Below the pieces are notes generated by a model, which saw nothing but the letters and a program-made list of their open reading frames with translations, made no database searches and was not told the DNA's origin. A stretch of DNA of 64,000 nucleotides from Bacillota bacterium (GTDB lineage Bacteria > Bacillota > Clostridia > Acetivibrionales > DTU013): contig JAEWQC010000276.1 in the NCBI GenBank assembly GCA_023399355.1, positions 1,714-65,713 on the forward strand, given 5' to 3'. Positions 34,297-55,738 of the stretch are shown here, piece after piece. Position 1 is the first letter of the stretch; the number at the start of each line of letters is the position of its first letter. A program made the position numbers and the translations under genes.

Positions 34297-35718
34297 TTAT
34301 GCACACAGTTCGGACAGTTTTGCGTGTGGATCTTCCAGCACTGCTGCAATCACCGATAGAAAAAATTCATATATCTGTTCAACTTCCGGCTTTTGCATAA
34401 TATCCAGCCGATAGATAAATTGAAATACAAGTTTTTCCTTGTTCACCTGCCTGATCCGCAGTAACAAATGAACTATTTCTTCTTTCTTTCGTGCGAAGAG
34501 CAACTCTTCGTCCGCATTATAATTATCAAAAGATACTATGGTGTTGATGAAAAAGAACCTGCCGTCCGGACTGAGACCTTTATTCTGATCTCTCCCGGCA
34601 TTTTCCTGCTCCCTCCCGACTTCCTCCTGATCTCCTCGAGCTTTTTCCCGATCACTCCCGGCGTCCTCCGGTTTTAAAAAACCGAGTTTGATCACCTCTT
34701 CACGCATCAATCCGGCGTTAAAACTTTTATTCCTGATTGCCGATTTCCACTCATTCATGACCAGTTTCAACAAGTCCATGAAACAAAGATCCTGATTCAT
34801 CCGGACCCTGATGGGGAGTAGGCTTGGAAAGCATCCAATCATCTGCTGTTCTTCGGGAGTTACCCTGTTGTGGAAAAAGGTAGAAGTCAGTACATCGTTG
34901 CTGGAATTTGCTTTCGACAGATAGAGAAGCATCAATGCCATGCAGAAAGCAAGAACGGTAATGTGCTGCTGTTTAAAGAAATCCTCCAGTCTTTCACGTA
35001 AATAAAAAGGAAGGATAAATTCAGTACTTGCACAGAGCAGGCAATCCGTGGACACCGTGCCCGGTTTAGGATCACAGGAACCAAAAGGAGGCGCCAGTTT
35101 TTTCATCCAGTACCCTATGCTGTCCCACATCTTTCCCACCTCTGAATCCTCCTGCTGTTTTTGCGCATATTGAAAAAATGATGGTTTTTCTGCTAACTCT
35201 GTGTGTGTTTTGTTCAAAAGGATCTTGTATTCTTCCTCCAATTCCTGCCTGACTAAATTGAAAGACCATCCATCTGAAATCACATGGTTCAATTTCACAA
35301 AACACGCACTGGATTTATGCAAATCCAATATTTTGAATTGAAACAGTTCACAGTTAAATAATTTCATTGGTTTCTCATTTTCGCTGTCCAGCCAATCCTC
35401 TAAAAATGGCGTACCCTTTACCGGACCCAAATCGCATACCTCTATGTCTTTTTTTTCGCAATCGCATAAATACTGAACCACTTCATTGTCATTCCGGGTC
35501 AGCCGGATACGCAGCCCGTCATTTTTTACAATCACGCGATGAATGGCATCCTTTAGCAGATTAGTATCCATTCTGCCGTCAAAAAAAATGATGCAGCTCA
35601 AATTCATACAATTCTCATCCATATGTTCGAGCATACTGCACATTCCGTTCTGGACCAGTGTCAAGCCGCAATATTCCATAAAAACGTACCCTCCCCATCC
35701 TGCCTGCCTATCTTCCAT
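34297..35718 (-). CDS. Stand-alone condensation (C) domain protein
   Basis: 473 aa. Active-site variant NHVISDGWS (HHxxxDG) at the expected distance from the N-terminus. The start is uncertain; the ATG at 35679 is an alternative. Confidence 0.7.
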   Translation of the reverse strand: MEDRQAGWGGYVFMEYCGLTLVQNGMCSMLEHMDENCMNLSCIIFFDGRMDTNLLKDAIHRVIVKNDGLRIRLTRNDNEVVQYLCDCEKKDIEVCDLGPVKGTPFLEDWLDSENEKPMKLFNCELFQFKILDLHKSSACFVKLNHVISDGWSFNLVRQELEEEYKILLNKTHTELAEKPSFFQYAQKQQEDSEVGKMWDSIGYWMKKLAPPFGSCDPKPGTVSTDCLLCASTEFILPFYLRERLEDFFKQQHITVLAFCMALMLLYLSKANSSNDVLTSTFFHNRVTPEEQQMIGCFPSLLPIRVRMNQDLCFMDLLKLVMNEWKSAIRNKSFNAGLMREEVIKLGFLKPEDAGSDREKARGDQEEVGREQENAGRDQNKGLSPDGRFFFINTIVSFDNYNADEELLFARKKEEIVHLLLRIRQVNKEKLVFQFIYRLDIMQKPEVEQIYEFFLSVIAAVLEDPHAKLSELCA

Positions 35719-36880
35719 GAAGATACAAAAGAATACATTTCGGGCATATCGGCATTAAGCCCTGGTCTATAATCAGCCTTGCCTTTTTATACTGCTCGCT
35801 GTTCCACAAATCGCCTACGCTGAGTTCTCTCAAATCTCCAATCGTAAACTCCGGGAACATTTTACATACTGTCACCGTTCCGTCTGCATTCACATTCATA
35901 CGATTTGAGGCTGCAAGACATGATTTTCTGTTCTGTCCGGTCTTTGCCCCTCCAGTAATAAAGTTCTCGACCTCATCCATCTCCAGGGCGGGTTGATACC
36001 TGACCCGAATTTTCCAGGTCTTTGCGTTGATTTTATCCAGATCTTTTTTCAATAAATCGATCCTTTCATGCTTAAGATTGTAAGTATACGAATGCCAGCT
36101 TTTTTTCCTGTTCTTGTCGTAACCGGGCAGCCAATTGAATTTGTCCTCAAAGAATTCATCCATTTTCAGGCATGAATCTTCCGGGATATACCATGGAAAG
36201 CAGAAATATACCGTGTTGACGCCTTTTTCTTCGAAATACGTCAAATAGTCAAAAAGCTTGCCGACCATACTGTCTGTAATTACGCAGTTTACAGATACTT
36301 CCCCCCTAAAGGCGCCTTTTGCCTTACAGTCCAACAATGTATCTATTCCTCTTATGACTTTTTTATAGGTACCCCTTCCCCGGATAAAATCATTCTCCTG
36401 TTCAAATCCGTCAAGACTGACCAGAACCGCAAGACTCCCGGATATTTTCAGAAGGGACTCCAGATTGTCCTCCATCCCTGTCGCATTGGTGCAAAGCACA
36501 GTCCATCTGGGGTCTTCCGCCAAAAGATCGCAGAATCCGTCCCAGTGTTCATAACAAAGCGGCTCTCCTCCCCATATGTACAAATTCGATTTTACATCCT
36601 TTGTTTCGGAAAATATTTTCTCAATAATTCCAAAGTCCAGATCCATTTTTTGCACACAGGAATCCATATTATTGTGATGTCCGTCCTCACTCCACTGATA
36701 ACAGTGTTTGCACCTGAGATTGCACCTGTTGGTAAGCTGAAGCCCGATCTCCTCCGGAAGTCCGGTCGCGAAATCCGGCTTTGACTGTCTCTCCCGTGAT
36801 GCAAGTGACATGTTTCGGATCGTTCTTTTAATTCGTTCAAAGGATTTCTCGTCAAATTCAACGTTTGTTTTAGGCTGCAT
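35708..36880 (-). CDS. Radical SAM protein with C-terminal SPASM/twitch-like Cys cluster
   Basis: 390 aa. CNLRCKHCY (CxxxCxxC) and GGEPL, plus C-terminal CLAASNRMNVNADGTVTVC ... CPKC. Confidence 0.8.
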   Translation of the reverse strand: MQPKTNVEFDEKSFERIKRTIRNMSLASRERQSKPDFATGLPEEIGLQLTNRCNLRCKHCYQWSEDGHHNNMDSCVQKMDLDFGIIEKIFSETKDVKSNLYIWGGEPLCYEHWDGFCDLLAEDPRWTVLCTNATGMEDNLESLLKISGSLAVLVSLDGFEQENDFIRGRGTYKKVIRGIDTLLDCKAKGAFRGEVSVNCVITDSMVGKLFDYLTYFEEKGVNTVYFCFPWYIPEDSCLKMDEFFEDKFNWLPGYDKNRKKSWHSYTYNLKHERIDLLKKDLDKINAKTWKIRVRYQPALEMDEVENFITGGAKTGQNRKSCLAASNRMNVNADGTVTVCKMFPEFTIGDLRELSVGDLWNSEQYKKARLIIDQGLMPICPKCILLYLHGR

Positions 36881-36936
36881 GATCTTCTTCCTCCTCCTGC
36901 TATTTTCTAAAATCTTGGGATAACTGCGCTGATATG

Positions 36937-38058
36937 CTACGCATCACGTTTCATTACCACATCAGGATAGTCAATGGTCGAGCTCCTGTTCATCAGGTTC
37001 CGGTGAAGCCTTTCCAGAATGTCCATGGAAAATCCCGATGTTTTCCAATTTTCATAGGAGATGCCAAATCCCAGGTGTTCCCATATCTTTGCATTTTTAT
37101 CTTCCGCTTCTCCGAAAGGGTCCAGTGTAATAATAGGCGTGGCAGACGCAAGCGAATCGAGTAGTGTGCCACCGCCGGGTTTACTGATGATTGCCTTTGC
37201 TTCTCTGATCGTATCGAATAATTCATGACAGCATTCCTTGTTTTTATAGATGGTTTTTTCTCCAGCCCTGATTTCAGCCATAGGCGGAAATTCATGACAG
37301 CCGTTTCCGTTTTTCATCCATGGGTTCCAGGCCGGATCTATCATGTAATACCTGTGCTCCGTCCCGGCCTCCACCTCTTCAGGAAAGTATGCAACAATAT
37401 CCAGCTTGCATCCCGCCCTGTCAAGTTCGGATAATTTACTTTTATAGGTACCCATGCCCCATCCCCCGCCATGTACAACAAACCGGTCCTTTCGCCGCTC
37501 ATATTCTATCGGCTTTTGATCCGTTACCGGTATTTCATAGCATAGCCGCCTTTCATTCCAGTTCCATAGCCATATCTGTCCATAATTGCTGCATATATCG
37601 GTGAAATGACTCAGAGACTGGCAAATATCGGCATCAATGTTCAGGACATCCACTTCAATAGGAAAGCCGCTCTTTTCCCTGTACATCTCCAACAAGGGAA
37701 CCCAATAACCCGAGAAAATGATAAAGCGCCTTCTGCCGGACTGTTCCCACAAGCCGAACAACTCAGCCACCAGGGATTCATCCAGAGTGGAAGACATATC
37801 TTTGGTCATTTTCCGCCCCTTCAGTGCCAGTCTGAAATTGTCATGAAAAGCCTTCTTGTTGTCCAGAATTTTAGCCTTTTTTTCTTCTGAAATCAGATTT
37901 TCAATCACTGCGACATCCGTATTCACCTTTCTTTTTTTTAATTGGTATTCCAATATCAATGCAGGTATGTAAACACCAAGAGCAACACCTGAAGCAAGTA
38001 TTGTTACTGTTTGATCCTCCATTTTGCCACATCCCCCGTTAATATATTTTAAATCCAA
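36937..38058 (-). CDS. GT28-family glycosyltransferase (MGDG synthase / UgtP-like)
   Basis: 373 aa. N-terminal ILASGVALGVYIPAL and C-terminal AKAIISKPGGGTLLDSLASATPII are typical of diacylglycerol glycosyltransferases. The ATG at 38022 is an alternative start. Confidence 0.65.
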   Translation of the reverse strand: MDLKYINGGCGKMEDQTVTILASGVALGVYIPALILEYQLKKRKVNTDVAVIENLISEEKKAKILDNKKAFHDNFRLALKGRKMTKDMSSTLDESLVAELFGLWEQSGRRRFIIFSGYWVPLLEMYREKSGFPIEVDVLNIDADICQSLSHFTDICSNYGQIWLWNWNERRLCYEIPVTDQKPIEYERRKDRFVVHGGGWGMGTYKSKLSELDRAGCKLDIVAYFPEEVEAGTEHRYYMIDPAWNPWMKNGNGCHEFPPMAEIRAGEKTIYKNKECCHELFDTIREAKAIISKPGGGTLLDSLASATPIITLDPFGEAEDKNAKIWEHLGFGISYENWKTSGFSMDILERLHRNLMNRSSTIDYPDVVMKRDA

Positions 38059-39385
38059 ACGATTTCAGGAACTCCCCTGCTGTGTGTATCAACTCAAGCC
38101 GCTCTTCTTCCGTTCCGGCTGCTGCAGAATAATAGAGTCTTCCCTTGCATATTTCCGCCTCTCCCTTATCAGGAGAAGCACCGCAGCTATTCACAAGCAA
38201 TGTATTGGCCGATAGCGGGAGGATTCCTTTTCCCGTCTCAAGTTCAAACAGAATGCTCGCTTTCTTCATTTCCGAAAGCAGTTGTTCATATTCGAACGAC
38301 TGGGTATATCCAAGAGTTAACAGGCCCAATTGACCTTCCGAGTTGAATTTTTCAAGATACATATTAATATGGCGGTTTACCATCCCCATTGTCTTTCTTG
38401 CATTAATCTCCACGAGAGGGACAATATTTCCGTCTTTCAGAATCATCGAGTCAATGCCGATTTCTCCGAAATACCCGTCCTTATACAGTTCCTCCGCAAT
38501 TTCAACCATCGTTTTAAAGTAGCCCTTTTCTTCCAGAATTCTGTATAGATCTCCGCTGATACAGCAAGTCCCGGCATAGTTGAACCGGTTATTCACTATT
38601 TTTTGCATACTGGATATCCGGATCTTTCCATCTGTGTCCAAAATAAGATTGCAGGAGAAATCTTCCTGTTTGTCCAGAAACGGTTCCAGTAAAAGCCGTA
38701 CATGCTTTTGATGATCTTCCTGCTTTTTCATATACCCGGCCAGCTTTAACAGAATCGTCGCCGAGGTGACCAATATGTTTCCTTTTCCTGATACCCCATA
38801 CTCGTCCTTCATGAGAAAAGCACCGTCTTTCAGCAGTTCAAGCCCCTTCCGGACAAGCTGCTCCGAGTCGTAAACAGCTTCACCTCCGGCATTTAAATCC
38901 AGCTTTTTTTTAAGGCTGTTGGAATAAATTTTTGAATTTACCGTTTTGACATGTTCCAGTTGGGGCAAGGCATGACAAATATTCAGTGAGCGGCTCATCT
39001 CCAGTGTATTCGGAATGATTGCATAAGGGGAGAGGCAAGTATCCATATCTACCAGTTTCTTAACCCTGGAGATATTGTTTTCCATGACAGCCGTTTCGAA
39101 AATATTGCAGCTTGTACTGCCACTATTTTCGGTGCAATCCTCCAAATCGGACGAATTGCTGTCAAAGTCAAATCCTATTTGATTCAGATAAGCCTTGTGG
39201 CAGTCATTCATCTTCTTTCTCGTAATGAGTACATCCCTATCCGCACAAAAAGGAAACAGCAATTCATCCATACAACCGATCATATTACTGCTGCCCTGAT
39301 CATGAATTTCAGGCAATAATGCCGTATTGCCGTCACGCCAGAACTTTTCGGAATCGAATACTCCCATTACCAGCCTCTTATTCAT
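38039..39385 (-). CDS. ATP-grasp ligase
   Basis: Start moved to the ATG at 39385 (MNKRLVMGVFDSEKFW) with GGAGGTG RBS. Blocks MKDEYGVSGKGNILV, GEIGIDSMIL and PLVEINARKTMG match the ATP-grasp fold. Confidence 0.7.
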   Translation of the reverse strand: MNKRLVMGVFDSEKFWRDGNTALLPEIHDQGSSNMIGCMDELLFPFCADRDVLITRKKMNDCHKAYLNQIGFDFDSNSSDLEDCTENSGSTSCNIFETAVMENNISRVKKLVDMDTCLSPYAIIPNTLEMSRSLNICHALPQLEHVKTVNSKIYSNSLKKKLDLNAGGEAVYDSEQLVRKGLELLKDGAFLMKDEYGVSGKGNILVTSATILLKLAGYMKKQEDHQKHVRLLLEPFLDKQEDFSCNLILDTDGKIRISSMQKIVNNRFNYAGTCCISGDLYRILEEKGYFKTMVEIAEELYKDGYFGEIGIDSMILKDGNIVPLVEINARKTMGMVNRHINMYLEKFNSEGQLGLLTLGYTQSFEYEQLLSEMKKASILFELETGKGILPLSANTLLVNSCGASPDKGEAEICKGRLYYSAAAGTEEERLELIHTAGEFLKSFGFKIY

Positions 39386-39422
39386 AGCCCACCTCCATAT
39401 CCTTCCTGCAGAGATCCCTTCT

Positions 39423-39704
39423 TCAGCCGGCCACAGGGTCATTTTCTGCCACCGGGCCATTTTCTGCCGCCACAGCTTTTTCGATAACCTCACATACACT
39501 GGCTATCTTCTTCAGATGCTCCATGTCAAGCATGTCAAAATCCATTTCTATATTGAATTCATCCTCCAGTCTGAGCACAAAAGTAATCATTTGAAGTGAA
39601 TCCAATCCGACTTCGCTGATGATGTCGGAGTTGCCATTCAATGTTGCTTTCAAATTGCTGTCGTTTTTTACCTCGCACAGGATTTCAATTACTTTTTCAA
39701 CCAT
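39423..39704 (-). CDS. Acyl/peptidyl carrier protein with duplicated acidic C-terminal tail
   Basis: 93 aa. Phosphopantetheine site GLDSLQMITF. The C-terminus AENGPVAENDPVAG is encoded by an 18-bp tandem duplication. Confidence 0.8.
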   Translation of the reverse strand: MVEKVIEILCEVKNDSNLKATLNGNSDIISEVGLDSLQMITFVLRLEDEFNIEMDFDMLDMEHLKKIASVCEVIEKAVAAENGPVAENDPVAG

Positions 39705-39753: not shown

Positions 39754-40974
39754 TCATCCGGCCCTTTTTGTCAATGCTTCATAGGTATGAATCAGCCTCT
39801 GTGCACAAAGTTCTCCTTTGTAGGCCTGTGCAAGGATTCCGGATTGCTTCCCGAAGTTCTCCCTCAGTTCCTTGTCTCCGCACAGGGCATTCAAAGCCAG
39901 CACATACTCCTCCCGGCTCTTACAGACATATCCGTTCCCCCTGTGCCGGACGAAATCCACCGGTCCCCCCTTGTTTGAAACGATTACCGGCAGGCCTCTG
40001 TACATAGCTTCTATAACGGACAGGCCAAATGTATCCGAAGCATGTGGTGAAAAATAGATGTCCACACTGTTATAAACTTCTACCAGCTCATTCTGGCTCA
40101 AAAGCCCCAGGTACTTGATGCTCCTGTCCTTTTCGCACGCCGCTTTCACCCACTCAATTGTCCTGGGGCTGCCACTTCCTGCCAGATACAGTTCAGCCCG
40201 CTCATTTTGCTTTGCAGCCTCCCGAAACAATTCCAATACGATCCTTATATCCTTGCCTCCGTCAAACCTTCCCGCATACAATATTTTGATGGATTCCGAT
40301 TCCCTGATACCCATATTTTCAGCATTGGACTCAAATACCGCTTCATTGACCCCCAGGAACTTCCCGCAGATAACATTTTCAATCCCATGCAGCAGCAGAT
40401 GCTTCCCTGCATCCCTGCCGGAACACAGTACCATGTCATACCCTTCGTACACCTCATGATAAACCCTGTTCTTATCCTGCATGTAGGGTGATATGACATG
40501 TTCAGGCTTGACCTGCCTGGAAAATTCAGGATAGTTTGTCTGGTAATAGGCTGCGGCAGGGATTCCATGTCTGCCTGCATAGTCAATCGCAATCCGGTCA
40601 CGATAGGCGAATGTTTTGTCCATTCCATACAAGGCAAGGCCGTAGATCCTATCCGGATCATCCACATGAATGACCTCCGGAATAAAATCTCCGATTACCG
40701 CTTCCAGATCCCACAAACTGCTTTCAAGAAATTTGATTTTATCCGGTCGTAACGTATTTTTCTGGGATGGAACAGGTTTCACAGTGACATTCGGAAAGAT
40801 TTCTCCGAGATAATCCCCGTATGTGGGGTATATCTCTTTTTCCAGGCTGTAATCAGGGCACAGCAGCAATACATGGTGCCCCATATTGGAAAAATGGCCG
40901 CACATATTGTACAGCTGAAAGGAGGAACCCAATGCCTCCGGGAGAAAACCGGCTGCTATAATGCATATGTTCAT
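39754..40974 (-). CDS. GT4-family glycosyltransferase (paralog 1 of 3)
   Basis: 406 aa. The N-terminus MNICIIAAGFLPEALGSS...GHHVLLLCPDY and the C-terminal block SDTFGLSVIEAMYRGLPVIVSNKGGP (the E-x7-E region of GT4) are seen. Confidence 0.8.
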   Translation of the reverse strand: MNICIIAAGFLPEALGSSFQLYNMCGHFSNMGHHVLLLCPDYSLEKEIYPTYGDYLGEIFPNVTVKPVPSQKNTLRPDKIKFLESSLWDLEAVIGDFIPEVIHVDDPDRIYGLALYGMDKTFAYRDRIAIDYAGRHGIPAAAYYQTNYPEFSRQVKPEHVISPYMQDKNRVYHEVYEGYDMVLCSGRDAGKHLLLHGIENVICGKFLGVNEAVFESNAENMGIRESESIKILYAGRFDGGKDIRIVLELFREAAKQNERAELYLAGSGSPRTIEWVKAACEKDRSIKYLGLLSQNELVEVYNSVDIYFSPHASDTFGLSVIEAMYRGLPVIVSNKGGPVDFVRHRGNGYVCKSREEYVLALNALCGDKELRENFGKQSGILAQAYKGELCAQRLIHTYEALTKRAG

Positions 40975-41061
40975 TGCTTTAACCTTCCTCTCGGGATTAT
41001 AAAGTATTTATTCCAAGAAATTTTTTCCAACTCATTACTGCTATGTCCGGCAAGCTATCTT

Positions 41062-41172
41062 CTTGATTTCCGCCAAAGCTGTCCCCTTGATTTCCGGCAA
41101 AGGTATTCCTTTGATTTCAAGCACAGGTATTCCTTTGATTTCAGGCACAGGTATTCCTCTGATTTCAAGCAG
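41062..41172. repeat. About 4.6 tandem copies of a 24-bp repeat in the largest intergenic gap of the operon
   Basis: Units start at 41062, 41086, 41110, 41134 and 41158 (partial), consensus CTTTGATTTCARGCACAGGTATTC. A further TTGATTTCC lies inside the 3' end of the PPTase gene. Confidence 0.9.
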
Positions 41173-41860
41173 TTATTAACAGATCCTTGATTTCCATTTT
41201 ACGGATGTTCCCCCTGATATTTTCACAAGGACTTTCCACGGCGACGGATATGCAGTAACCGCTGATATGGAAGGACTTGAATGCCACTTCATCATTCTTC
41301 AGAACGTTGAAGCTGTCAAATGGAATTGCAAGTCCCCGCCCTTTGCATTTTACATAGGATTCCTTCATTGTCCAAAGCCTGCATACACTTTTTTTGTCCT
41401 CATTGCCGCCGGACATCAGAAACCTGATTTCTCTCTCATGGAAAAATGTCGACACCGTGTGTTGGATTTCCCGTTCCGTTGATTCGACATCTATGCCAAC
41501 CTTACCGTCCAGTATGACTGCACAGGCTGTCACTTCACCGGAATGCGACAGATTGAAGTCGATCCTGCCGTTATGATTTCCACAGAATTTGTCATTAAGA
41601 TCCTTTAGTTGCAATCTGCCGTAAGGATCTCTTTCTATGCATATGTTGTTCACCGGAAGACCGGTAATCCCTGATAATATGCTTTTCGCCAGCGCCCTTC
41701 CGCACAAGAAATGATTTTTCCTGCCTGTACTGGAGCACCTGTGGTAATATTGCAGTTCATCCCTGTCCAGGAACCGGGTCGCATGGATTCGGCCTTCCAT
41801 GTCGGAACCGGTTCTGAGATAATAAATGTCTACCATACCGTTTTGCAGACTAAACGGCAT
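41165..41860 (-). CDS. Sfp-type 4'-phosphopantetheinyl transferase
   Basis: 231 aa. Blocks FNLSHSGEVTACAV, GIDVE and WTMKESYVKCKGRGL. Confidence 0.85.
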   Translation of the reverse strand: MPFSLQNGMVDIYYLRTGSDMEGRIHATRFLDRDELQYYHRCSSTGRKNHFLCGRALAKSILSGITGLPVNNICIERDPYGRLQLKDLNDKFCGNHNGRIDFNLSHSGEVTACAVILDGKVGIDVESTEREIQHTVSTFFHEREIRFLMSGGNEDKKSVCRLWTMKESYVKCKGRGLAIPFDSFNVLKNDEVAFKSFHISGYCISVAVESPCENIRGNIRKMEIKDLLITA

Positions 41861-46289: not shown

Positions 46290-46298
46290 CTATACCTC

Positions 46299-48154: not shown

Positions 48155-48908
48155 TCAACACTCCCTGACCGCAGTGTATCCCATTTTCCCGACAACGTTT
48201 GGAATACATTTGAAGTACTTCTTTCTTAATATGCAGATTCATTTGATATTTTGATTCTTCAGCCAGCTTTTCCGCCACCTCAACAGCAGCGTCAACTACC
48301 CTGCCTCTTTCTAACAGCCTGTTTGCTATACCGGTTTGATAAGCTTCCCATGCATTGATCATATTCCCTCTCAGCAGCAACTCCCTGGCTTTTGGAACGG
48401 CTATAAGGCTTTTCAGCCTGACGCTTCCGCTGCATCCGGTTATAAGGCCCCAGGTTATTTCCGGCTGGGAAAAGATCGCATCCCTGCTGCAAAAGATCAA
48501 ATCGCATGACATTGCAAGCTCCATCCCCGATCCGGCGCAAAATCCGCCCACTGCGGCTATCACCGGAAAATGGAAGGCCTCGATCTCCATAAAGATATTA
48601 ACATTTTTCCAGTTTTCCTTTTTCACTTCATCTTCCTTATCCAACCCTGCTTTCAGAGGCTCGAGAAGGCTGTGTTTGATGTCTTCAAGCTCGGCTCCGG
48701 CGGAAAAATGACGTTTGCTTCCATAAATAACTGCAGCGCCTATGTCATCCCTTTCCCGGATGCTTTTTACCGCCTCATCAAGCTGTCTGAAAAAAATCAT
48801 ATCCATCCTGTTATCAGGCGGGTTGTCCAAAATGATGTGCACCACTCTGTTTTCAACCTGCAGCCTTATTTTTTTCCTGTCCTCCAATATCGCCGCCTCC
48901 GTTAACAT
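48141..48908 (-). CDS. Enoyl-CoA hydratase/isomerase (crotonase) family protein
   Basis: 255 aa. Blocks HFSAGAELEDI and PVIAAVGGFCAGSGMELAMSCD. Confidence 0.8.
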   Translation of the reverse strand: MLTEAAILEDRKKIRLQVENRVVHIILDNPPDNRMDMIFFRQLDEAVKSIRERDDIGAAVIYGSKRHFSAGAELEDIKHSLLEPLKAGLDKEDEVKKENWKNVNIFMEIEAFHFPVIAAVGGFCAGSGMELAMSCDLIFCSRDAIFSQPEITWGLITGCSGSVRLKSLIAVPKARELLLRGNMINAWEAYQTGIANRLLERGRVVDAAVEVAEKLAEESKYQMNLHIKKEVLQMYSKRCRENGIHCGQGVLNGND

Positions 48909-49635
48909 ATTGCTCTATTACCAGCTCCGCAAACATGTGGCACTCTTCTTTCATTGCAGATTCAAAATCCTTTCTTAATGCATTATTCACCGCCCGGATT
49001 GTATATTGGACCGGTTTCCTGCCCATTTCCACAATCCTGCCGAGTACCTCTAAAGCATGGTCAAATGCAGTTTTATCTTCCGTAATGGCATTGACTATCC
49101 CAAACTGCCTGGCATATTCCGCCCCGAACACCTCTCCTGTGAGAGCGATTTCCAGTGTCCTGGATTTGCCAGCAATGGCAAGAAGCCTTTGTAATCCTCC
49201 ATAACCCGGTATGATCTCATGCGAGACCTCCGGAAAACCAAATATCGCTTTCTGTGAGCAATATCTCAACTGGCAGGCAAGAGCTATCTCGAGTCCGGCC
49301 CCCAGGCAAGCTCCATCAATTGCTGCTATTACGGGCTTCTCGATATTTTCCAGGCCATTTATTATTTCCCTTCCGGCTTCGAATAGCTTACCGATTTCTT
49401 CCGTTGTAAATTCACAGCCTGTAAAATAGCTCAGATCCGCACCGGATGAAAAATGCCTGGCCTCTCCGGTTACAAGGATCCCTTCGATATTTTCCCTGTT
49501 GATCCATCGTTTTACAATTTCCGGGTCGGCAAAGTCCGGTCTGGGAATGGCATTTCCCTTTTTCCCCGAAGAAATCCTAAGGATACCAATCCGGCCTCTT
49601 TCCTCCCATTTTAAAATCCCTGACTTGTCTGTCAA
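48853..49635 (-). CDS. Enoyl-CoA hydratase/isomerase (crotonase) family protein
   Basis: Blocks HFSSGADLSYF and PVIAAIDGACLGAGLEIALACQ. Start proposed at the TTG at 49635, preceded by AGGGGAG. The track ORF extends to 49704. Either start overlaps the upstream gene. Confidence 0.7.
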   Translation of the reverse strand: MTDKSGILKWEERGRIGILRISSGKKGNAIPRPDFADPEIVKRWINRENIEGILVTGEARHFSSGADLSYFTGCEFTTEEIGKLFEAGREIINGLENIEKPVIAAIDGACLGAGLEIALACQLRYCSQKAIFGFPEVSHEIIPGYGGLQRLLAIAGKSRTLEIALTGEVFGAEYARQFGIVNAITEDKTAFDHALEVLGRIVEMGRKPVQYTIRAVNNALRKDFESAMKEECHMFAELVIEQYVNGGGDIGGQEKNKAAG

Positions 49636-50767
49636 TTTCTTCACTCCCCTGTGAATATTTTGAGATATATTCCAATACCGGTAATGGTCTGTACAACGAA
49701 TCAATCTCCTGCGAATATTTCTTCAGCCTTTCCACTACAACCTCTGCACCCTCCTGGAATAATGTCCTCACAGGCCCTTTGTCATTACCGTTTATTTCGC
49801 AAAAGATCCTGTCCAATTCCACACAATCCGCATAGCCTCTGTCAACCAATTCAAAACTTGAATTGATATAAAGAAGTTTTATCCGTTCCTTAATCTTTGC
49901 CTTGATTTCTTCCGGGACTTTATTTTCAACAGGCTTTGGAAAATCCTCCTGATTTTTATAGCGGTAAAATCCTTCCCCGCTCTTTTTCCCAAGATGCCCC
50001 TGCTTCAATTTCCCGTTCAGATACTCTCTCAACGGGAAAAAGCTTTCAAATTCCTCCCGGAATTCATAATGTCCGCATATGCAGTTGTAAATGGTATCCA
50101 GTCCGACATTGTCCTTTAGTGTAAACGGCGGAAGGGTATATCCGCTGTCACTGATTATTTCATCCAGATCCGAAAAGGGAATGTGCAATTCCCCGTGAAT
50201 CCGATATGCTTCATTTCCGATAACAGTGAGTACTCTGGTCGTTATACATCCGGTACCCTCACCGATCCGTACGGGTATCTTCCCAATATGCTCAAGGAAT
50301 AAGCATACCTTGTCAACAAGATCCATCGGTGTCCTGTCTCCATATACCACCTCAACTGTCTGCATGTCCTGTACCGGATAAAGGTAATGAACTCCAATCA
50401 GATTATAACGGTCATACTCTGCCGATAACCTGCCCGGTGTAAAGGACGAAGATCCCGTCGCCAGTATTTGTGACGGATTCTTCCCTGACTCAAGAAGCTT
50501 TTGCATGATTTCTCTCTTTATTGAAATCTCCTCTGCCACAAACTCAAATACAATATCACAATCACACAGATCTTCAATTCTGTCGGTAAAAGAAACACAC
50601 AAATCCATCTCGCAATATTTCTTCTTCAGCCTGGCTATCCTGTTTGTATCTCTGATATGGAACACGACAGAATAGTTCGAAAAACGTGATAAGTATTTGA
50701 AAAAGGAAAGGCCCATCTTGCCCCCGCCGCAAATTCCGATGGAGGTAAACGTCTTTGTATCACACAC
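49577..50767 (-). CDS. 3-hydroxyacyl-CoA dehydrogenase-like protein (Hbd-like)
   Basis: 396 aa. N-terminal Rossmann motif IGICGGGKMG and a 3HCDH-like layout. Confidence 0.65.
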   Translation of the reverse strand: MCDTKTFTSIGICGGGKMGLSFFKYLSRFSNYSVVFHIRDTNRIARLKKKYCEMDLCVSFTDRIEDLCDCDIVFEFVAEEISIKREIMQKLLESGKNPSQILATGSSSFTPGRLSAEYDRYNLIGVHYLYPVQDMQTVEVVYGDRTPMDLVDKVCLFLEHIGKIPVRIGEGTGCITTRVLTVIGNEAYRIHGELHIPFSDLDEIISDSGYTLPPFTLKDNVGLDTIYNCICGHYEFREEFESFFPLREYLNGKLKQGHLGKKSGEGFYRYKNQEDFPKPVENKVPEEIKAKIKERIKLLYINSSFELVDRGYADCVELDRIFCEINGNDKGPVRTLFQEGAEVVVERLKKYSQEIDSLYRPLPVLEYISKYSQGSEEIDRQVRDFKMGGKRPDWYP

Positions 50768-51707
50768 AACTCATGACCTCCCTGAATGCATCCCTGCAGT
50801 ATAAAAACCGGTACTCCGGCCTGATCAGGGCGGACATTCTGCACAGGGAGTCCCCCAGCCCGATTTCATAATACTTTTTGAAGCCCATGTCTGCAGCTTT
50901 TTCTATTGTTTTCACCCATGACATGGCGTGCTTGATGTTCCGATAGAGGTCCCGCCTTGCATCATAGGCCGTGCACATTACATCCTGCGTGATTGCGGAT
51001 ATCACCATGATGGACGGATCCTTGAATTCCACCTTGTCAAAAAATTTGCGGAACAGTATTGCGGGCTCATTCATAAAACCGGTATGGTATGGCATCGATA
51101 CAGCAAGCTGTTTACTGTTAATGGCCCCTTCCCTTCCCGCCACTGAACACACCCTGCCTATCCCTTGTTCAGTACCCGACAGCACCATGCTGTACTGATT
51201 GTTTTCATTGATAATAAAGACCTCTGCAAGCATATCCAACTTTCTGATGATGTCCTGTATCTGCCCGTAATCCAAACCGGTAACGACAGCCATCCCCCAC
51301 TTTTCCTTCTTTTGCAGAAATTCCTTCATGAGGCTGTATGCAGCTGCAATCAGATTGATCCCGTCGCTGTAGCTTATTACTCCGCTGCAGTGTAAAGCTG
51401 AATAAAGGCCAATGCTATACCCCGCCAGCACACCCGGCTTTATGTCCCTTTTCAGGTATTCCCGGAATACAAAACAGTTTACCGTATAGATTGAGATTTG
51501 TTCCAGGAGTTCTTTATCCCTGCAGACCTCATCATTGCCGTTTATGAAGTCCCATACATCCACTCCGGATACTTCCTGCGTTTTCCTGCATGACGCCCTT
51601 AATTCGGCCAGACCGGCACTGTCCAAAACATCCATGCACTTGTTGTATCTCATACCGACTCCAGGAAAAAGGAAAGCATAATTGTCTCTGGGATTCATCT
51701 TATTCAA
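50760..51707 (-). CDS. ACP S-malonyltransferase-like acyltransferase (FabD-like)
   Basis: 315 aa. FLFPGVGMRY (compare FxFPGQGxQ) and nucleophile elbow GYSIGLYSAL (compare GHSLGEYSAL). Confidence 0.7.
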   Translation of the reverse strand: MNKMNPRDNYAFLFPGVGMRYNKCMDVLDSAGLAELRASCRKTQEVSGVDVWDFINGNDEVCRDKELLEQISIYTVNCFVFREYLKRDIKPGVLAGYSIGLYSALHCSGVISYSDGINLIAAAYSLMKEFLQKKEKWGMAVVTGLDYGQIQDIIRKLDMLAEVFIINENNQYSMVLSGTEQGIGRVCSVAGREGAINSKQLAVSMPYHTGFMNEPAILFRKFFDKVEFKDPSIMVISAITQDVMCTAYDARRDLYRNIKHAMSWVKTIEKAADMGFKKYYEIGLGDSLCRMSALIRPEYRFLYCRDAFREVMSCV

Positions 51708-53032
51708 CGAACGATCACCTGCCCTGAATACAAATCCGCCACCTGCCTGTAAAACTCCTCTTCCGGCAATGTTGTAGGCAGCACGGAATTTAGTAGATTA
51801 TAATAGGAGAGATCCGTTATTGTAATCTTGTCTTTCACCTCTTCATACAGCGGAGTACCCGGAAAAGGAGTCATGATGGTAAAAACGGAATATTTCAAGT
51901 CATTTGACAGAACAAATTCCTTTATTCTGCGGAAATTCTTTTCTGTATAGCCCGGCTGGATGAGGAAGTTCGCTCTCATATTGATATTGTATTTATGAAA
52001 CATTTCAATCGCTTTCAGATTCTCATACAACGTGGCTTCTTTGTTATAGTGCTTCAGTTCCTCCTCTTCAACCGATTCCAGCCCGACAATGGCTATAACC
52101 ACGCCCATTTCAGCCGCTTTTTTGACCAGATCCTCCCGGTATGCCGCCGTATCGGATCTGATATCCATCATAAAATAGTAATTGAAGTTCTCCCGGATGA
52201 TTCTGTCCATCACCCTGTTGATATGCTCTGTGCTGCCCATGGTATTTGCGTCTATAAACCTGACCACCTTGTACTCCTGCAGCATTTTCAGTTCTTCAAC
52301 AATGTGTTCCACCGCACGTTCGTGATAATGGCCTTTGTTCATGGGCCATATGGAGCAGAAAGTGCACTTGTTCGGACAACCGTATGAAGTTTCAACAGAT
52401 CCCAATGCATCTCCATGAGGCCCAACTCTGTAGGCATCGATATATTTTCTTACCAGGGATCTGTCCGCGCACACATCCGACAGAAGCTTCTCCGGGCATT
52501 GAAACAAGTTCTGATTTTTTGTATAGTAGAATGTTCCGCCTCTGTTTACGGAAATGTTGGGTATCTCTGAAAATCCCTCTTTCTTTCTAGCACACTCGAC
52601 AATCCTTTTGAAAATATATTTGCCATGACCCATGACAGCTATATCGATAGCCGGTCTTTCAAAATCCTGCGGGCAAAGTGTGACATGCACGCCTCCGGCG
52701 ACCGTCAGGATGGCCGGATCCTGATTCTTAACCGTTTCAAATATTTTCATGGCGGAAGGGTATTCGCTTGTAAGGACTGTAACTCCAACCACGTCGGGAT
52801 TAAACGCCGATATTTTCCTTCGAACAGCTTCTTCAACCGGTATATTCAAACCTAACCGGTATTCGGCTTTGAAATCTACGATCTCAACCTCATGCTCCTT
52901 CAGGTTCCCGGCCAGTGAGCACAAGGCGTGAGGGGCGCCTACAGGATTATACCTGCCGACATCCGCCCCGTCTGAATATTTATTAATAAGATTTTTGTCC
53001 GAACAAGGAGGATTTATAAGAAGTATTCTCAC
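51704..53032 (-). CDS. B12-binding-domain radical SAM protein
   Basis: 442 aa. N-terminal MRILLINPP cobalamin-binding-type domain, then SYGCPNKCTFCSIW (CxxxCxxC). Confidence 0.8.
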   Translation of the reverse strand: MRILLINPPCSDKNLINKYSDGADVGRYNPVGAPHALCSLAGNLKEHEVEIVDFKAEYRLGLNIPVEEAVRRKISAFNPDVVGVTVLTSEYPSAMKIFETVKNQDPAILTVAGGVHVTLCPQDFERPAIDIAVMGHGKYIFKRIVECARKKEGFSEIPNISVNRGGTFYYTKNQNLFQCPEKLLSDVCADRSLVRKYIDAYRVGPHGDALGSVETSYGCPNKCTFCSIWPMNKGHYHERAVEHIVEELKMLQEYKVVRFIDANTMGSTEHINRVMDRIIRENFNYYFMMDIRSDTAAYREDLVKKAAEMGVVIAIVGLESVEEEELKHYNKEATLYENLKAIEMFHKYNINMRANFLIQPGYTEKNFRRIKEFVLSNDLKYSVFTIMTPFPGTPLYEEVKDKITITDLSYYNLLNSVLPTTLPEEEFYRQVADLYSGQVIVR

Positions 53033-53045
53033 AGACAGCTCCCCT

Positions 53046-54167
53046 TTAGTATTGTTTTAGCAGAAATCCTGCCTGTATGATTTTACTGACTTCCAGGACG
53101 AAACTGAGTATCTGGTCGTTCTCTTTCAGTTTTTCTTCTCTCAGAAGCTTGTCCATGGTAATCAGAACCATTGGCGAACCGGAATATCCGTACTCATCCA
53201 GTTTGGAATAAAAAGCGCCTGGAGATACCCCCATATCAATACACTTTTCCATAATAAATTGATTGACATGTTCCGCCGGGAAATTAATATTGAAGACAGT
53301 AATCCTTTTCAAGTCGATATCATACTGCTCAATCATTCTTTTCAGACCTTGAATGAATGTATTGACAATCAGACTTTCTCCTGAATTATCGTCGGTCCTC
53401 ATATTGGTCCTTCTTTGGGCGATGTGGTGAAGGCCTTTGTTATACACCTCCAGCGGATTCATGGAATATGCCTGTTTTCTGTTGAACATCATCGGATCGA
53501 GCCCGCAGCCTACGGACTCGATATATGCTGCCTCCAGATAGGTACCTTTTGGTTTTTCACTGTCATCTCTTGTAAATATCATACAGCCCGCACCATCGCA
53601 TAAAAACCACCTTAACATCAGTTCTTCCCTTTTCACCAGCTTCTGGTTGAAAAATTCCGTTCTGGCAGTACTGGAAGCCATATTGGATGTTACCACCATA
53701 ACCGTTTTGTACCTTCCGACAGAAATAAGGTCATGGGCAAGTAAAATGGATTTATAAACTGACGAACAATTTGATTGGATGGATATTTCACCGCAGCTTG
53801 ATATCCCAAGTTCTTCCTGAATGGCTGTACTTGCCGGAGGCATCTGTTCCAGCGATGCGCATCCAAACAGCAGCAACTCTATATCGTCGGGCTTGAATCC
53901 GGCATCATCCATCGCTTTTTTTGCAGCCTTTACAGCCATAGTCACATTGGTCTCAGTGAATTCTCTGGTTTCAGGATCAATTGCGAAATAGTATTGTTTG
54001 ATTCTAAGCATTTCTTTCATAACCGGGTTCATTCCACGCATCCAGTTTTGTATCGCAACCGGTGCCTCCGGCAGTTCCCCCAGAACCCTGTGTATCTCAT
54101 CGAACGGAATCGGCTTGCCAGGCAGGTATGAACCTGTACCTGCCAGTTTAACCATAATTTTTGGCAT
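53046..54167 (-). CDS. KAS III-like condensing enzyme (thiolase superfamily, FabH-like)
   Basis: Start set at the ATG at 54167 (MPKIMVKLAGTGSYLPG, a FabH-type N-terminus) with a G-rich RBS. Putative active-site Cys in IQSNCSSVYKS. The track ORF extends to 54221. Confidence 0.65.
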   Translation of the reverse strand: MPKIMVKLAGTGSYLPGKPIPFDEIHRVLGELPEAPVAIQNWMRGMNPVMKEMLRIKQYYFAIDPETREFTETNVTMAVKAAKKAMDDAGFKPDDIELLLFGCASLEQMPPASTAIQEELGISSCGEISIQSNCSSVYKSILLAHDLISVGRYKTVMVVTSNMASSTARTEFFNQKLVKREELMLRWFLCDGAGCMIFTRDDSEKPKGTYLEAAYIESVGCGLDPMMFNRKQAYSMNPLEVYNKGLHHIAQRRTNMRTDDNSGESLIVNTFIQGLKRMIEQYDIDLKRITVFNINFPAEHVNQFIMEKCIDMGVSPGAFYSKLDEYGYSGSPMVLITMDKLLREEKLKENDQILSFVLEVSKIIQAGFLLKQY

Positions 54168-54204
54168 GACGGACCCCCCTGTAATTTCTATAGATTCTCT
54201 GATT

Positions 54205-54510
54205 TCATTCCAGTTCTGCACTGAATCCTTCTCCGTCCAGAATAAGGGAATAAGCTAACTGCACAGTACTTCCCAGTGTATTTACCGGATTTTTGGTAAG
54301 ATATTTACCTATTTTTCTGAATTCAATATCCAGTGCATATTTCTTTTTCCAGCCTTCCAGCATTTGCAGAATCATTAAAGAATCCCCATCCATGTCTTCG
54401 ATGATATTTGTCTCGTCATTCAGTTTCTCCATATCAATTCCGCACTGATCGGAAAAAAATTCAAAAACGTCCTTTCTGATTTCTCTTTCCAGTTCCTCTG
54501 TTCTTATCAT
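54205..54510 (-). CDS. Acyl carrier protein
   Basis: Start set at the ATG at 54510 (MIRTEELEREIRKDV...) with AGGGAGAAAAG RBS. Phosphopantetheine site DMDGDSLMIL. The upstream part of the track ORF overlaps the KS gene and is rejected. Confidence 0.8.
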   Translation of the reverse strand: MIRTEELEREIRKDVFEFFSDQCGIDMEKLNDETNIIEDMDGDSLMILQMLEGWKKKYALDIEFRKIGKYLTKNPVNTLGSTVQLAYSLILDGEGFSAELE

Positions 54511-54526
54511 TTTCTTTTCTCCCTTT

Positions 54527-55738
54527 CTATGTTTTTTTAAAAACAAGTGTACAATTATGACCGCCAAATCCGAATGAATTGGAGATAGCTGCTTGAACCG
54601 CATGCTTTCTGGTTTTGTTCGGAACATAATCCAGATCGCATTCCGGGTCCGTTTCCGTATAATTGATGGTAGGTGTAACAAGATCTTCAGCAACACTCCT
54701 GACGGTAACCAACGCCTCCAATGCACCGGCGGCTCCAAGAGTATGGCCGATCATGGATTTTGACGAACTGACAGGGATACGGTATGCAAGCTCTCCAAAA
54801 ACATTTTTTATTGCTTTTGTTTCATATAAATCATTGAGGTGTGTAGCTGTCCCGTGTGCATTGATATAATGAATATCCTCCGGTTTCAACCCTGAATTTT
54901 TCAGGGCCAGGTTTATGGTTCTTGCCATTCCCAGCCCCTCCTTTTCAGGGGCAACAATATTATAGGCTTCGGATGTAATACTGTAGCCCGCAAGTTCACA
55001 ATATATTTTTGCATTGCGGTTCAATGCGCTTTCATAACTCTCCAACAGAAGCATCCCTGCACCCTCGCCCATAACAAACCCATCCCGGTTTTTATCGAAA
55101 GGCCTGCATGCTTTCGAACCTGCTGCATTGTTTTCAGACAATGCCATCAACTCATTAAAACCTGCTATTCCCTCTTTCGATACCATGGATTCGGTTCCAC
55201 CCGCAATAACAGCAACAGCCTGGCCGCTTGCTATTCTGTCATAAGCCAGTCCCATTGCATAGGCCGAGGATGCACATGCTGTATTTACAGTGAAATTGGC
55301 TCCTTTTATACCGAATTCGAGGCTTATCCAGGCCGAGAGAGAATTAATCATGCTTCTGACGATATACTCCCCTTCCCGTTTTCCTTCAACACTTGTATAA
55401 CCGCTGCCTGTGGCACCGATAATCACTTCTGTCCTTTCCTTGTCCAACCCGTCCTGAAGCTTAGCATCCGCGATTGCCTCACGAGCTGCAATCAAAGCAA
55501 ATTCTCCAATCCTGGTCATTTTTATCCTGTTTCTTTTTTTAATACTTGCAAAGGCAATCTCCTCAAATCCCGCAGGTACTTCTGCCGCTATCCTTGTGAT
55601 GGAATCGCTTGTATCAAAGAGGGTGATATTTCCTACCCCGGAATGCCCCTGCACAAGCTGGTCCCATGTTTGACTTACATTCAGTCCCAGGGATGTTACG
55701 GCTCCCAAACCTGTTACGACTACTTTCCGCCTCGACAT
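54527..55738 (-). CDS. Beta-ketoacyl-ACP synthase II-like (FabF-type KS)
   Basis: 403 aa. Active-site Cys in VNTACASSAYA, plus His blocks NAHGTATHLND and KSMIGHTLGAAG. First gene of the long operon. Confidence 0.9.
   Translation of the reverse strand: MSRRKVVVTGLGAVTSLGLNVSQTWDQLVQGHSGVGNITLFDTSDSITRIAAEVPAGFEEIAFASIKKRNRIKMTRIGEFALIAAREAIADAKLQDGLDKERTEVIIGATGSGYTSVEGKREGEYIVRSMINSLSAWISLEFGIKGANFTVNTACASSAYAMGLAYDRIASGQAVAVIAGGTESMVSKEGIAGFNELMALSENNAAGSKACRPFDKNRDGFVMGEGAGMLLLESYESALNRNAKIYCELAGYSITSEAYNIVAPEKEGLGMARTINLALKNSGLKPEDIHYINAHGTATHLNDLYETKAIKNVFGELAYRIPVSSSKSMIGHTLGAAGALEALVTVRSVAEDLVTPTINYTETDPECDLDYVPNKTRKHAVQAAISNSFGFGGHNCTLVFKKT

Follow-up and report, generated by a model that had tools for sequence, protein, structure and literature searches.

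Does an operon that mixes enzymes of the fatty acid synthase (FAS) type with radical S-adenosylmethionine (SAM) enzymes, glycosyltransferases, an ATP-grasp ligase and a condensation (C) domain of the non-ribosomal peptide synthetase (NRPS) type encode one pathway, and if so, what kind of molecule would it make? The question is raised by contig JAEWQC010000276.1 (assembly GCA_023399355.1) of a Bacillota bacterium of the class Clostridia, of which a stretch of 64,000 nucleotides (contig positions 1,714 to 65,713), hereafter the window, was analysed; the stretch is also identical to a part of the 138-kb metagenome scaffold LEMO22-1_SAMN17215516 scaffold_60. On its minus strand, 21 open reading frames (ORFs), all co-directional, occupy positions 34297-55738; they are numbered in transcription order from g1 at 55738 down to g21 at 34297, and the window locus is designated L001 (Table 1). 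The operon is real, intact and rare, and it is a hybrid cluster for carrier-protein-dependent lipid assembly and glycosylation; the window proteins are singletons when clustered at 90% identity. Judged by synteny, it is a mosaic that unites two cassettes, each conserved on its own and each with its own taxonomic range, termed here cassette A (g1-g8) and cassette B (g17-g20). A previous sequence-only reading had proposed one undivided pathway. Its gene inventory stood, as did its central idea of a dedicated carrier-based acyl pathway with glycosylation and export; a single pathway is plausible, in an operon that is built from two fused cassettes. That the operon is specialised, serves no housekeeping role and makes one exported, multiply glycosylated acyl (lipid) product is a reading for which we see the case as evenly balanced.

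Cassette A was recognised through g3, a thiolase-fold condensing enzyme. In 185,579 species genomes, a pattern-limited profile scan picked out 273 stretches encoding a g3 relative, and a protein search showed a large family with relatives at about 45-59% identity. The best 80 of the 273 loci all belong to uncultured metagenome-assembled genomes (MAGs), mostly of Bacteroidales and Spirochaetota, with few of Bacillota. All window proteins were then compared by tblastn with 86 g3-bearing loci. A homologue of the crotonase g7 lay beside g3 in 83/86 and one of the second crotonase, g8, in 82/86. Homologues of the dehydrogenase g6 were present in 57/86, of the ketosynthase (KS) g1 in 56/86 (46-64% identity), of the acyl carrier protein (ACP) g2 in 31/86, and of the acyltransferase (AT) g5 and the B12-binding radical SAM enzyme g4 in 31-37/86, with g4 homologues of 36-50% identity in about 26 loci. 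In the same comparison, no glycosyltransferase, ATP-binding cassette (ABC) transporter gene, second carrier, ATP-grasp ligase, radical SAM/SPASM enzyme or C domain of the operon was found in the g3-bearing loci. Since the other genes co-occur with g3 in the absence of the sugar genes, g1-g8 can be regarded as an old, mobile unit.

The settings of cassette A in other genomes bear on its product. A hotdog (4HBT) thioesterase, absent from the window, accompanies it in 71/86 loci (Bacteroidales, Spirochaetota), and about 10/80 Bacteroidales loci have the cassette inside flexirubin/aryl-polyene-type clusters in which LolB2 scores above its curated cutoff. The usual occupant of that position in such clusters is DarAB, and the arrangement suggests that anaerobic Bacteroidales use cassette A where aerobes use DarAB. 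In a Bacillota MAG (L007), the genes 3' of cassette A encode a desaturase-like flavoprotein, a flavodoxin-like protein, a CDP-alcohol phosphatidyltransferase, a 4'-phosphopantetheinyl transferase (PPTase) and a type II thioesterase. The flexirubin-type setting and these neighbours together indicate a lipid-like product of cassette A. One Bacteroidales example (L005/L018; MAG OY820914.1, 3.92-3.94 Mb) has the cassette embedded among LolB2 (above cutoff), LolA, an ApeI-like dehydratase, a pair of KS and chain-length factor (CLF) genes and three B12-radical SAM genes. When the aryl-polyene/flexirubin proteins of L005 were compared with the window locus by tblastn, nothing beyond generic KS similarity was found. 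The window was accordingly rejected as an aryl-polyene/flexirubin cluster, the KS/CLF pair, the ApeI-type dehydratase and LolA/LolB2 all being absent.

Cassette B is a second conserved unit, with an invariant trio of genes for a carrier, its neighbouring ATP-grasp ligase and a glycosyltransferase of the GT-B fold. At 35-56% identity, g17-g20 are collinear in Paenibacillus cellulosilyticus, on C. acetobutylicum pSOL1 and in an uncultured Clostridium; in P. cellulosilyticus and several metagenomes the collinear block, at 39-46% identity, includes ABC-2 homologues as well, with sugar-modifying and methyltransferase genes alongside. Homologues of g17 (39-50% identity) lie directly upstream of a g18 homologue in L087, L088, L091, L094, L095 and L096, and a carrier gene directly precedes the ATP-grasp gene in 6/6 full-length contexts examined. 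Homologues of the radical SAM/SPASM enzyme g20 (45-56% identity) were found in L087, L091, L094 and pSOL1. GT2 and ABC-2 genes accompany the cassette in some relatives, not all: the transporter ATPase g9 is 39-51% identical to the ATPases of L087, L088 and L091, and the GT2 enzyme g13 has homologues at 36-39% in L091 and L094. Further cargo varies. L091 adds a DegT aminotransferase and additional GT-B and radical SAM/SPASM genes to its g13-like GT2; L094 (the uncultured Clostridium) has a FabH-like gene and a Gfo/Idh/MocA oxidoreductase beside its own; and L095, from a cyanobacterium, has the carrier/ATP-grasp/GT-B trio only, plus a sulfotransferase and an MBOAT protein. On the pSOL1 megaplasmid of C. 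acetobutylicum ATCC 824 (L096; NC_001988.2, 143316-150090), the four-gene core is part of a seven-gene operon with the order ACP, ATP-grasp, g19-like GT-B, radical SAM/SPASM (CA_P0136), Gfo/Idh/MocA oxidoreductase (CA_P0135), hypothetical protein and alpha/beta hydrolase. The only mention of CA_P0135 and CA_P0136 in the literature searched is a transcriptome table, which assigns them no function.

The central member of cassette B is g18. It has no direct Pfam match, and its assignment as an ATP-grasp enzyme, made earlier from sequence, was upheld by the family profile, which matches the ATP-grasp peptide ligase 8ynd (4.3e-9), and by the domains of its homologues: DUF3182 in 12/25, ATP-grasp_3 in 7/25, and CPSase_L_D2 also matched, with an invariant E-x-N motif. 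The family is common in cultured Paenibacillus, and in one database source a homologue carries the name 'butirosin ACP-L-glutamate ligase'. The DUF3182 group is related to BtrJ-like ATP-grasp enzymes (PMC4431377), and carrier loading by an ATP-grasp ligase is described for BtrJ on BtrI in butirosin biosynthesis and for CtaD on CtaE in that of closthioamide (PMC11350588). By analogy, g18 is predicted to load the carrier g17 in the manner of BtrJ and BtrI. Here, too, a small carrier stands beside a DUF3182/BtrJ-like ATP-grasp enzyme, and both precedents come from Bacillota; the likeness is drawn at the level of the family. The two systems differ from cassette B in their pyridoxal-phosphate-dependent decarboxylase partner (BtrK/CtaF), which is absent here, whereas cassette B has an invariant GT-B enzyme and usually a radical SAM/SPASM enzyme. 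A gene near the Paenibacillus cassette weakly resembles BtrH_N (19 bits, under cutoff), which hints that the carrier-bound unit is normally passed to an acceptor. The carrier g17 itself ends in a AENGPVAENDPVAG tail, encoded by an in-frame 18-nt tandem repeat of 2.2 copies (39430-39468).

No Pfam match was obtained for g19, whose family comprises 297 representatives. It had been called a GT28 enzyme resembling diacylglycerol glycosyltransferases, and that call is supported in part. The AlphaFold model (predicted local distance difference test, pLDDT, 95.5) has a GT-B fold, and the family profile matches, in the C-terminal domain only, the UgtP-like processive diacylglycerol glucosyltransferase 9wde (7.4e-10) and MGD1 (1.3e-3); Foldseek ranks GT1 enzymes first and has MurG and MGD1 among its further matches. 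For g20, the best NCBIfam match gives 80 bits against a cutoff of 380, and similarity to SkfB and CteB is weak and limited to the core. Two specific roles for g20 were considered and rejected. As a maturase of ribosomally synthesised and post-translationally modified peptides it has no curated match, and the gaps on its two sides, of only 28 and 56 nt, are too short to hold a precursor ORF; a role as a BtrN-like sugar dehydrogenase gained no backing from a PDB sequence search, which gave only the SkfB/CteB core similarity.

The combination of the two cassettes recurs once, in the partial Bacillota contig L002 (40-64% identity; g3 59%). The stretch of it that was covered encodes a C domain that stands alone (333 bits), the genes of cassette A, ordered as in the window, a U32-peptidase-family gene, ABC-2 genes, a GT4 and a GT2. 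The extra Peptidase_U32-family gene (L002 9318-10493) separates the crotonases from the ABC transporter. Proteins of the U32 family serve elsewhere as O2-independent hydroxylases, and the presence of this gene is in keeping with anaerobic tailoring. A PPTase follows cassette A also in L007.

Two independent pathways might share the operon and its exporter, cassette A making a free lipid or pigment-type compound, as is presumed for Bacteroidales and Spirochaetota, and cassette B, with the glycosyltransferases, a separate glycosylated small molecule derived from the carrier, like the versions in Paenibacillus and C. acetobutylicum. Cassettes A and B each occur alone in many genomes, with non-overlapping taxonomic ranges, and the repeat-bearing gap of 190 nt between g15 and g16 could part two transcription units. 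Against such a division stands the absence of the thioesterase that 71/86 cassette-A loci possess: the acyl chain would need another off-loading route, for which only the C domain, encoded at the opposite end of the operon, is a candidate. Moreover, the ABC-2 genes, which travel with cassette B elsewhere, have been placed in the cassette-A half of the window, and L002 independently keeps C domain, cassette A, ABC-2, GT4 and GT2 together. We consider two separate pathways rather unlikely.

For g3, the earlier label 'KAS III-like' was correct as to the thiolase fold; the enzyme is more precisely StlD-like, and it lacks the canonical His/Asn pair. Among PDB entries its best sequence neighbour is StlD (1.4e-17; 1.9e-25 over the full length with the family profile). 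The AlphaFold model (pLDDT 90.9) likewise has StlD (5gk0) as its top Foldseek match (template modelling, TM, scores 0.85/0.87; E 2e-32; identity ~21%), ahead of AbyA1, FabH, PqsD, OleA and BioZ. Scores against the curated models remain far below their cutoffs, at 111 vs 450 bits for StlD/DarB (NF005293) and 81 vs 550 bits for DarB (NF053539). In an alignment of 25 family members with StlD, the catalytic Cys is conserved in 25/25, the StlD His column holds Asn in 25/25 and the Asn column holds Tyr in 25/25; an invariant His occurs five residues downstream of the catalytic His column of StlD. In g3 these positions are C152, N313, Y346 and H318. E. coli FabH served as the second reference for the alignment. 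With His and Asn replaced, the residues that serve malonyl decarboxylation in KAS III enzymes are out of their usual places. NocG and OleA are enzymes of the thiolase fold that condense a pair of acyl thioesters with no decarboxylation of malonyl units (PMC9486936). Of these, OleA is among the structural neighbours of g3 and ranks well below StlD, and the gene neighbourhoods of both differ from that of g3.

A special case of the one-product model is that cassette A is an anaerobic counterpart of dialkylresorcinol/cyclohexanedione biosynthesis, with g3 condensing a beta-ketoacyl and an enoyl thioester into a ring in the manner of StlD/DarB, the dehydrogenase and crotonases supplying the substrates, and a glycosylated resorcinol or cyclohexanedione lipid, bartoloside-like in outline, as the product. 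StlD is the best neighbour of g3 in both structure and sequence, over the full length and with the catalytic Cys kept. The dehydrogenase and two hydratase-competent crotonases would suit an interconversion of hydroxyacyl, ketoacyl and enoyl groups, and the Bacteroidales relatives in flexirubin/aryl-polyene-type clusters (about 10/80 loci, LolB2 above cutoff) point the same way. Set against this are the sub-cutoff scores, the identity of only about 21% and the invariant Asn and Tyr in place of the His and Asn of StlD; in addition, no DarA-type aromatase was recognised among the 21 operon proteins by general family assignment, which involved no explicit comparison with a DarA model. Compared as systems, DarABC loci need no crotonases or dehydrogenase, whereas g3 is nearly always found with two crotonases and usually with a 3-hydroxyacyl dehydrogenase. 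On balance the ring-forming variant seems quite unlikely.

The other enzymes of cassette A resemble type II FAS in part. The KS g1 belongs to the FabF group, with the Cys-His-His triad and 454 bits on the subfamily model NF005589 (cutoff 387), and falls short of the fabF model TIGR03150 (464 bits, cutoff 493.75). The 101-aa ACP g2 passes the Pfam PP-binding cutoff of 20.8 as a full-length gene. The sequence-only reading had called g5 FabD-like, which holds for the fold and not for the active site: the protein is below the Pfam Acyl_transf_1 cutoff and reaches 156 bits on NCBIfam fabD (cutoff 261), yet matches PDB FabD at 1e-23. Aligned to E. coli FabD (2g1h), it has GYSIG for GHSLG and Ala for Arg117, and both changes are common to all 29 family members examined. 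As Arg117 binds the malonyl carboxylate, a non-malonyl substrate is the simplest explanation; and its loss makes a FAS-like chain built from malonyl units too simple a picture. The dehydrogenase g6 matches Pfam 3HCDH_N and 3HCDH, with all NCBIfam matches under cutoff. Both catalytic Glu residues are kept in 88/90 members of the g7 family and 64/64 of the g8 family, so the two crotonases look like true (de)hydratases or isomerases and not like ECH2-type decarboxylases. For g4, the nearest NCBIfam models are HpnR, a hopanoid C-methylase (166 bits), and BchE, an anaerobic cyclase (131 bits), both far under cutoff.

With type II FAS the operon thus shares a FabF-type KS above the subfamily cutoff, an ACP, a FabD-fold AT and a PPTase. 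It differs in that FabG, FabZ and FabI are missing from the operon, their place being taken by a dehydrogenase and hydratases of the beta-oxidation type, in that the AT lacks Arg117 and in that the KAS III-like enzyme lacks His/Asn. The beta-branching cassette of trans-AT polyketide synthases (PKSs), built around a 3-hydroxy-3-methylglutaryl synthase (HMGS), has parts in common at the superfamily level (AT, ACP, KS, thiolase-fold enzyme, two crotonases). It was rejected: g3 scores 27-35 bits against HMGS cutoffs of 244-360, the KS keeps Cys155 where a Cys-to-Ser change is expected, the Glu pairs of the crotonases are kept, and there is no PKS. Overall, the operon probably works partly like type II FAS, partly like the DarB/StlD pathway, partly like BtrI/BtrJ loading and partly like an NRPS lipo-initiation step. 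Taken as known systems, FabF, ATP-grasp, GT-B fold and C domain are matched only at the superfamily level, and the StlD/DarB, FabD, HMGS and aryl-polyene/flexirubin groups do not include the window proteins. The statement that no characterised pathway has this composition agrees with the NCBIfam equivalog cutoffs, among which only the generic FabF subfamily model was reached, and with the literature; a literature search of incomplete coverage found no functional study of cassette A or cassette B.

A pathway can be proposed for the whole operon. The Sfp-type PPTase g15 would activate both carriers, g2 and g17. On ACP g2 the acyl chain would be lengthened by the FabF-like KS g1, while g6, g7 and g8, replacing FabG and FabZ with activities of the beta-oxidation type, would interconvert its beta-keto, beta-hydroxy and enoyl states. 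The StlD-like g3 might join or transfer acyl units independently of malonyl decarboxylation, with the Arg-less AT g5 moving a non-malonyl acyl group and the B12-radical SAM enzyme g4 methylating or cyclising an unactivated carbon without O2. Following the logic of BtrJ/BtrI and CtaD/CtaE, g18 would charge g17 with a carboxylic or amino acid, and the bound unit could be elaborated by the GT-B enzyme g19, the radical SAM/SPASM enzyme g20 and the GT2 g13. Since no thioesterase is encoded in the window, the stand-alone C domain g21 is the obvious off-loading or coupling enzyme, with two carriers to work between. It would replace the hotdog thioesterase and off-load a carrier-bound acyl group onto the substrate of the other carrier or onto the amine or hydroxyl of a sugar. 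Three paralogous GT4 enzymes would attach further sugars, with UDP-sugars supplied by the adjacent kinase/uridylyltransferase, and the ABC-2 transporter g9-g11 would export the product.

The C domain is itself unusual. It scores 170.5 bits on Pfam Condensation (cutoff 30.6), and its best PDB match is bacitracin synthase 3 (7e-24). The HxxxDG motif reported earlier is present as NHVISDG, an NHxxxDG form in which the catalytic second His and the Asp are retained and Asn stands at the first His of HHxxxDG. The protein is a near-orphan, with two weak relatives (26% and 23%) in a search of 5.8 billion proteins and none in the JGI metagenomes when used as query. Within its C-terminal part, an in-frame 42-nt tandem repeat of 2 copies (34585-34669) encodes an acidic low-complexity insertion.

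Whether lipid, sugars and an amino or acyl unit are in fact joined in one exported molecule is, on the evidence of families and synteny, a question on which we lean to neither side. Several observations weigh against the joint product. The active-site assignment of g3 is a reading of sequence alignments to StlD and E. coli FabH. The repeat-bearing 190-nt gap could divide the operon into two transcripts. Neither an enoyl reductase nor a thioesterase was found among the operon genes. Finally, each cassette functions alone in other genomes, and a joint product is therefore not required here. A bolder version, that cassette A is an undescribed O2-independent route to an unusual lipid (head-to-head, carbocyclic or methyl-branched), common among uncultured anaerobes of the Bacteroidales, Spirochaetota and Bacillota, which the C domain couples to cassette B as a second new pathway, giving a new class of glyco-(amino)acyl lipids, is tentative and to our mind on the doubtful side.

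If the fusion is as described, cassette A would be a lipid cassette of uncultured anaerobes whose condensing enzyme and acyltransferase depart from textbook active sites, and cassette B an ATP-grasp carrier-loading cassette present in culturable, tractable bacteria (Paenibacillus; C. acetobutylicum pSOL1, CA_P0136 region). The operon would then offer a natural experiment: both cassettes stand together with an exporter and five to six glycosyltransferases, and the product should be easier to detect. It would add to the few cases in which ATP-grasp enzymes, in place of adenylation domains, charge the carriers, and extend anaerobic lipid tailoring by radical SAM enzymes. An operon assembled from two widespread cassettes without an assigned product is a more interesting outcome than a single-pathway story.

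The glycosyltransferases and the transporter raise a different alternative, namely a cell-envelope locus, which would build and flip a glycolipid anchor of the membrane or else modify a secondary polymer of the cell wall, and so serve envelope maintenance and not a secreted natural product. The three GT4 enzymes are paralogous (g12 is 68% identical to g14 and 49% to g16) and have weak NCBIfam matches, all under cutoff, to N-acetylglucosamine-phosphatidylglycerol synthase, monoglucosyl-diacylglycerol synthase, the IagA/BgsA lipoteichoic-acid-anchor glycosyltransferase and small-molecule GT4s. These hits to lipid glycosyltransferases, the resemblance of g19 to diacylglycerol glucosyltransferases, the neighbouring GT21 protein of HpnI type, the SLH-domain surface proteins of the organism and the CDP-alcohol phosphatidyltransferase next to cassette A in L007 are all compatible with an envelope role. 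ABC-2 transporters commonly move glycans and lipids; the ATPase g9 gives 210 bits on the NCBIfam drrA subfamily, under its cutoff. Yet none of the curated equivalog cutoffs for envelope enzymes was reached. The locus is very rare, with a near-orphan as its C domain, and it combines a dedicated PPTase, two carriers, an NRPS C domain and two radical SAM enzymes, a set not typical of envelope glycolipid loci. Its position, beside an apparent integration scar with a tRNA-like remnant, and its G+C content, slightly above that of the flanks, also tell against this reading. With a GT4 profile as query, the JGI metagenomes gave only two distant matches (24-28%) and no close relatives. We judge an envelope function markedly improbable, and continue to prefer the specialised operon with one exported product.

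Pfam and NCBIfam support the family calls for 19/21 operon proteins. The number, direction and order of the genes, as well as their tight packing, agreed with what had been read from the letters. Some ORFs had been given starts too far upstream; the probable starts are 54510 for g2, 54167 for g3, 51653 for g5, 49635 for g7, 48887 for g8, 39385 for g18, 38022 for g19 and 35679 for g21. With these starts, junctions range from -59 to +56 nt, the sole exception being the gap between g15 and g16. The catalytic motifs listed at that time could likewise be read directly: the Cys/His/His triad of the KS at the residues given in Table 1, the DSL serines in both carriers and CxxxCxxC in both radical SAM proteins.

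Table 1. Genes of the operon and neighbouring features in the window
Feature	Position	Strand or length	Basis
g1, FabF-like beta-ketoacyl-ACP synthase II	54527..55738	-	Pfam ketoacyl-synt N+C; C155/H295/H332
g2, dedicated ACP, 101 aa, DSL serine	54205..54510	-	Pfam PP-binding 21.6 bits
g3, StlD-like thiolase-fold condensing enzyme, non-canonical active site	53046..54167	-	profile + AlphaFold/Foldseek
g4, B12-binding radical SAM enzyme, CxxxCxxC	51704..53032	-	Pfam B12-binding + Radical_SAM
g5, FabD-fold acyltransferase without malonyl-binding Arg (GYSIG)	50760..51653	-	PDB FabD matches 1e-23
g6, 3-hydroxyacyl-CoA dehydrogenase-type oxidoreductase, C-terminal extension	49577..50767	-	Pfam 3HCDH_N, 3HCDH
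g7, crotonase, both catalytic Glu	48853..49635	-	Pfam ECH_1
g8, second crotonase, both catalytic Glu	48141..48887	-	Pfam ECH_1
g9, ABC transporter ATPase, DrrA-like	47126..48154	-	Pfam ABC_tran
g10, ABC-2 permease	46299..47084	-	Pfam ABC2_membrane_6
g11, ABC-2 permease	45489..46289	-	Pfam ABC2_membrane_6, 149 bits
g12, GT4 glycosyltransferase	44191..45456	-	Pfam Glycos_transf_1, Glyco_transf_4
g13, GT2 glycosyltransferase	43082..44212	-	Pfam Glycos_transf_2
g14, GT4 glycosyltransferase	41850..43085	-	Pfam; alignment with g12, g16
g15, Sfp-type 4'-phosphopantetheinyl transferase, two-domain	41165..41860	-	Pfam ACPS + AASDHPPT_N
Intergenic gap g15 (PPTase)/g16 (third GT4)	40975..41164	190 nt	sequence + Tandem Repeats Finder
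g16, GT4 glycosyltransferase	39754..40974	-	Pfam; alignment with g12, g14
g17, second carrier protein, DSL serine	39423..39704	-	Pfam PP-binding 35.8 bits
g18, ATP-grasp ligase, DUF3182/BtrJ-like group	38039..39385	-	profile vs PDB 8ynd
g19, GT-B fold glycosyltransferase (GT1/GT28-like)	36937..38022	-	profile + AlphaFold/Foldseek
g20, radical SAM/SPASM enzyme	35708..36880	-	Pfam Radical_SAM + SPASM
g21, stand-alone NRPS-type condensation domain, NHxxxDG	34297..35679	-	Pfam Condensation
LuxR/GerE-type regulator, just upstream of operon	56021..56791	-	Pfam GerE 23.0 bits, cutoff 23.5
GHMP sugar kinase/GalU-like nucleotidyltransferase fusion, divergent	57001..58956	+	Pfam GHMP_kinases_N + NTP_transferase
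GT21/HpnI-like membrane glycosyltransferase	59115..60299	-	Pfam Glyco_transf_21; HpnI 174 vs cutoff 310 bits

In the gap between g15 and g16, a 24-nt unit is repeated in tandem about 4.8 times (Tandem Repeats Finder rows 41052-41171), with a consensus on the coding strand of roughly GAAATCAAAGGAATACCTGTGCCT. The array could be a regulatory protein-binding site or an internal promoter region. Scans of the operon for promoter and terminator consensus sequences performed no better than chance; one transcript for all 21 genes is plausible. An Rfam scan found no riboswitch or other RNA inside the operon. In the spacer between the LuxR-type gene and g1, consensus matches alone mark a terminator-like site (55984-55965) and promoter-like sites (55818-55759). 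Further upstream, the divergent GHMP kinase/GalU-like fusion, at 161 bits on NCBIfam galU and 62 bits on galactokinase (both under cutoff), probably supplies UDP-sugars, and the GT21/HpnI-like protein is a possible extra member of the cluster.

Both ends of the region carry tRNA-related sequences. A tRNA-like remnant (34136-34198, minus strand; Rfam tRNA 38.5 bits, no ARAGORN call) lies ~100 nt downstream of the last stop of the operon, and tRNA-Gly(TCC) and tRNA-Arg(TCT) are found at 62006-62205 (plus strand), just past the upstream flank. Together they bracket a region of ~28 kb with a G+C content of 0.43-0.465, slightly over the 0.39-0.42 of the flanks. An exact direct repeat of 42 bp occurs at 34125-34166, overlapping the 3' end of the remnant, and at 32441-32482; the two copies flank a Gp49/HigB-like toxin, a helix-turn-helix antitoxin and a RhuM-family fragment, and this repeat-bracketed toxin/antitoxin region beside the cluster looks like an integration scar. 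Farther downstream, on the minus strand, are genes for a 902-aa protein with no Pfam match (29384-32092) and for an 872-aa protein that combines beta/gamma-crystallin with peptidase-inhibitor I36 domains (24611-27229). The surrounding genes look chromosomal and Bacillota-like, and include SecA, a Mur-ligase-type protein, threonine synthase and an SLH-domain glycosidase.

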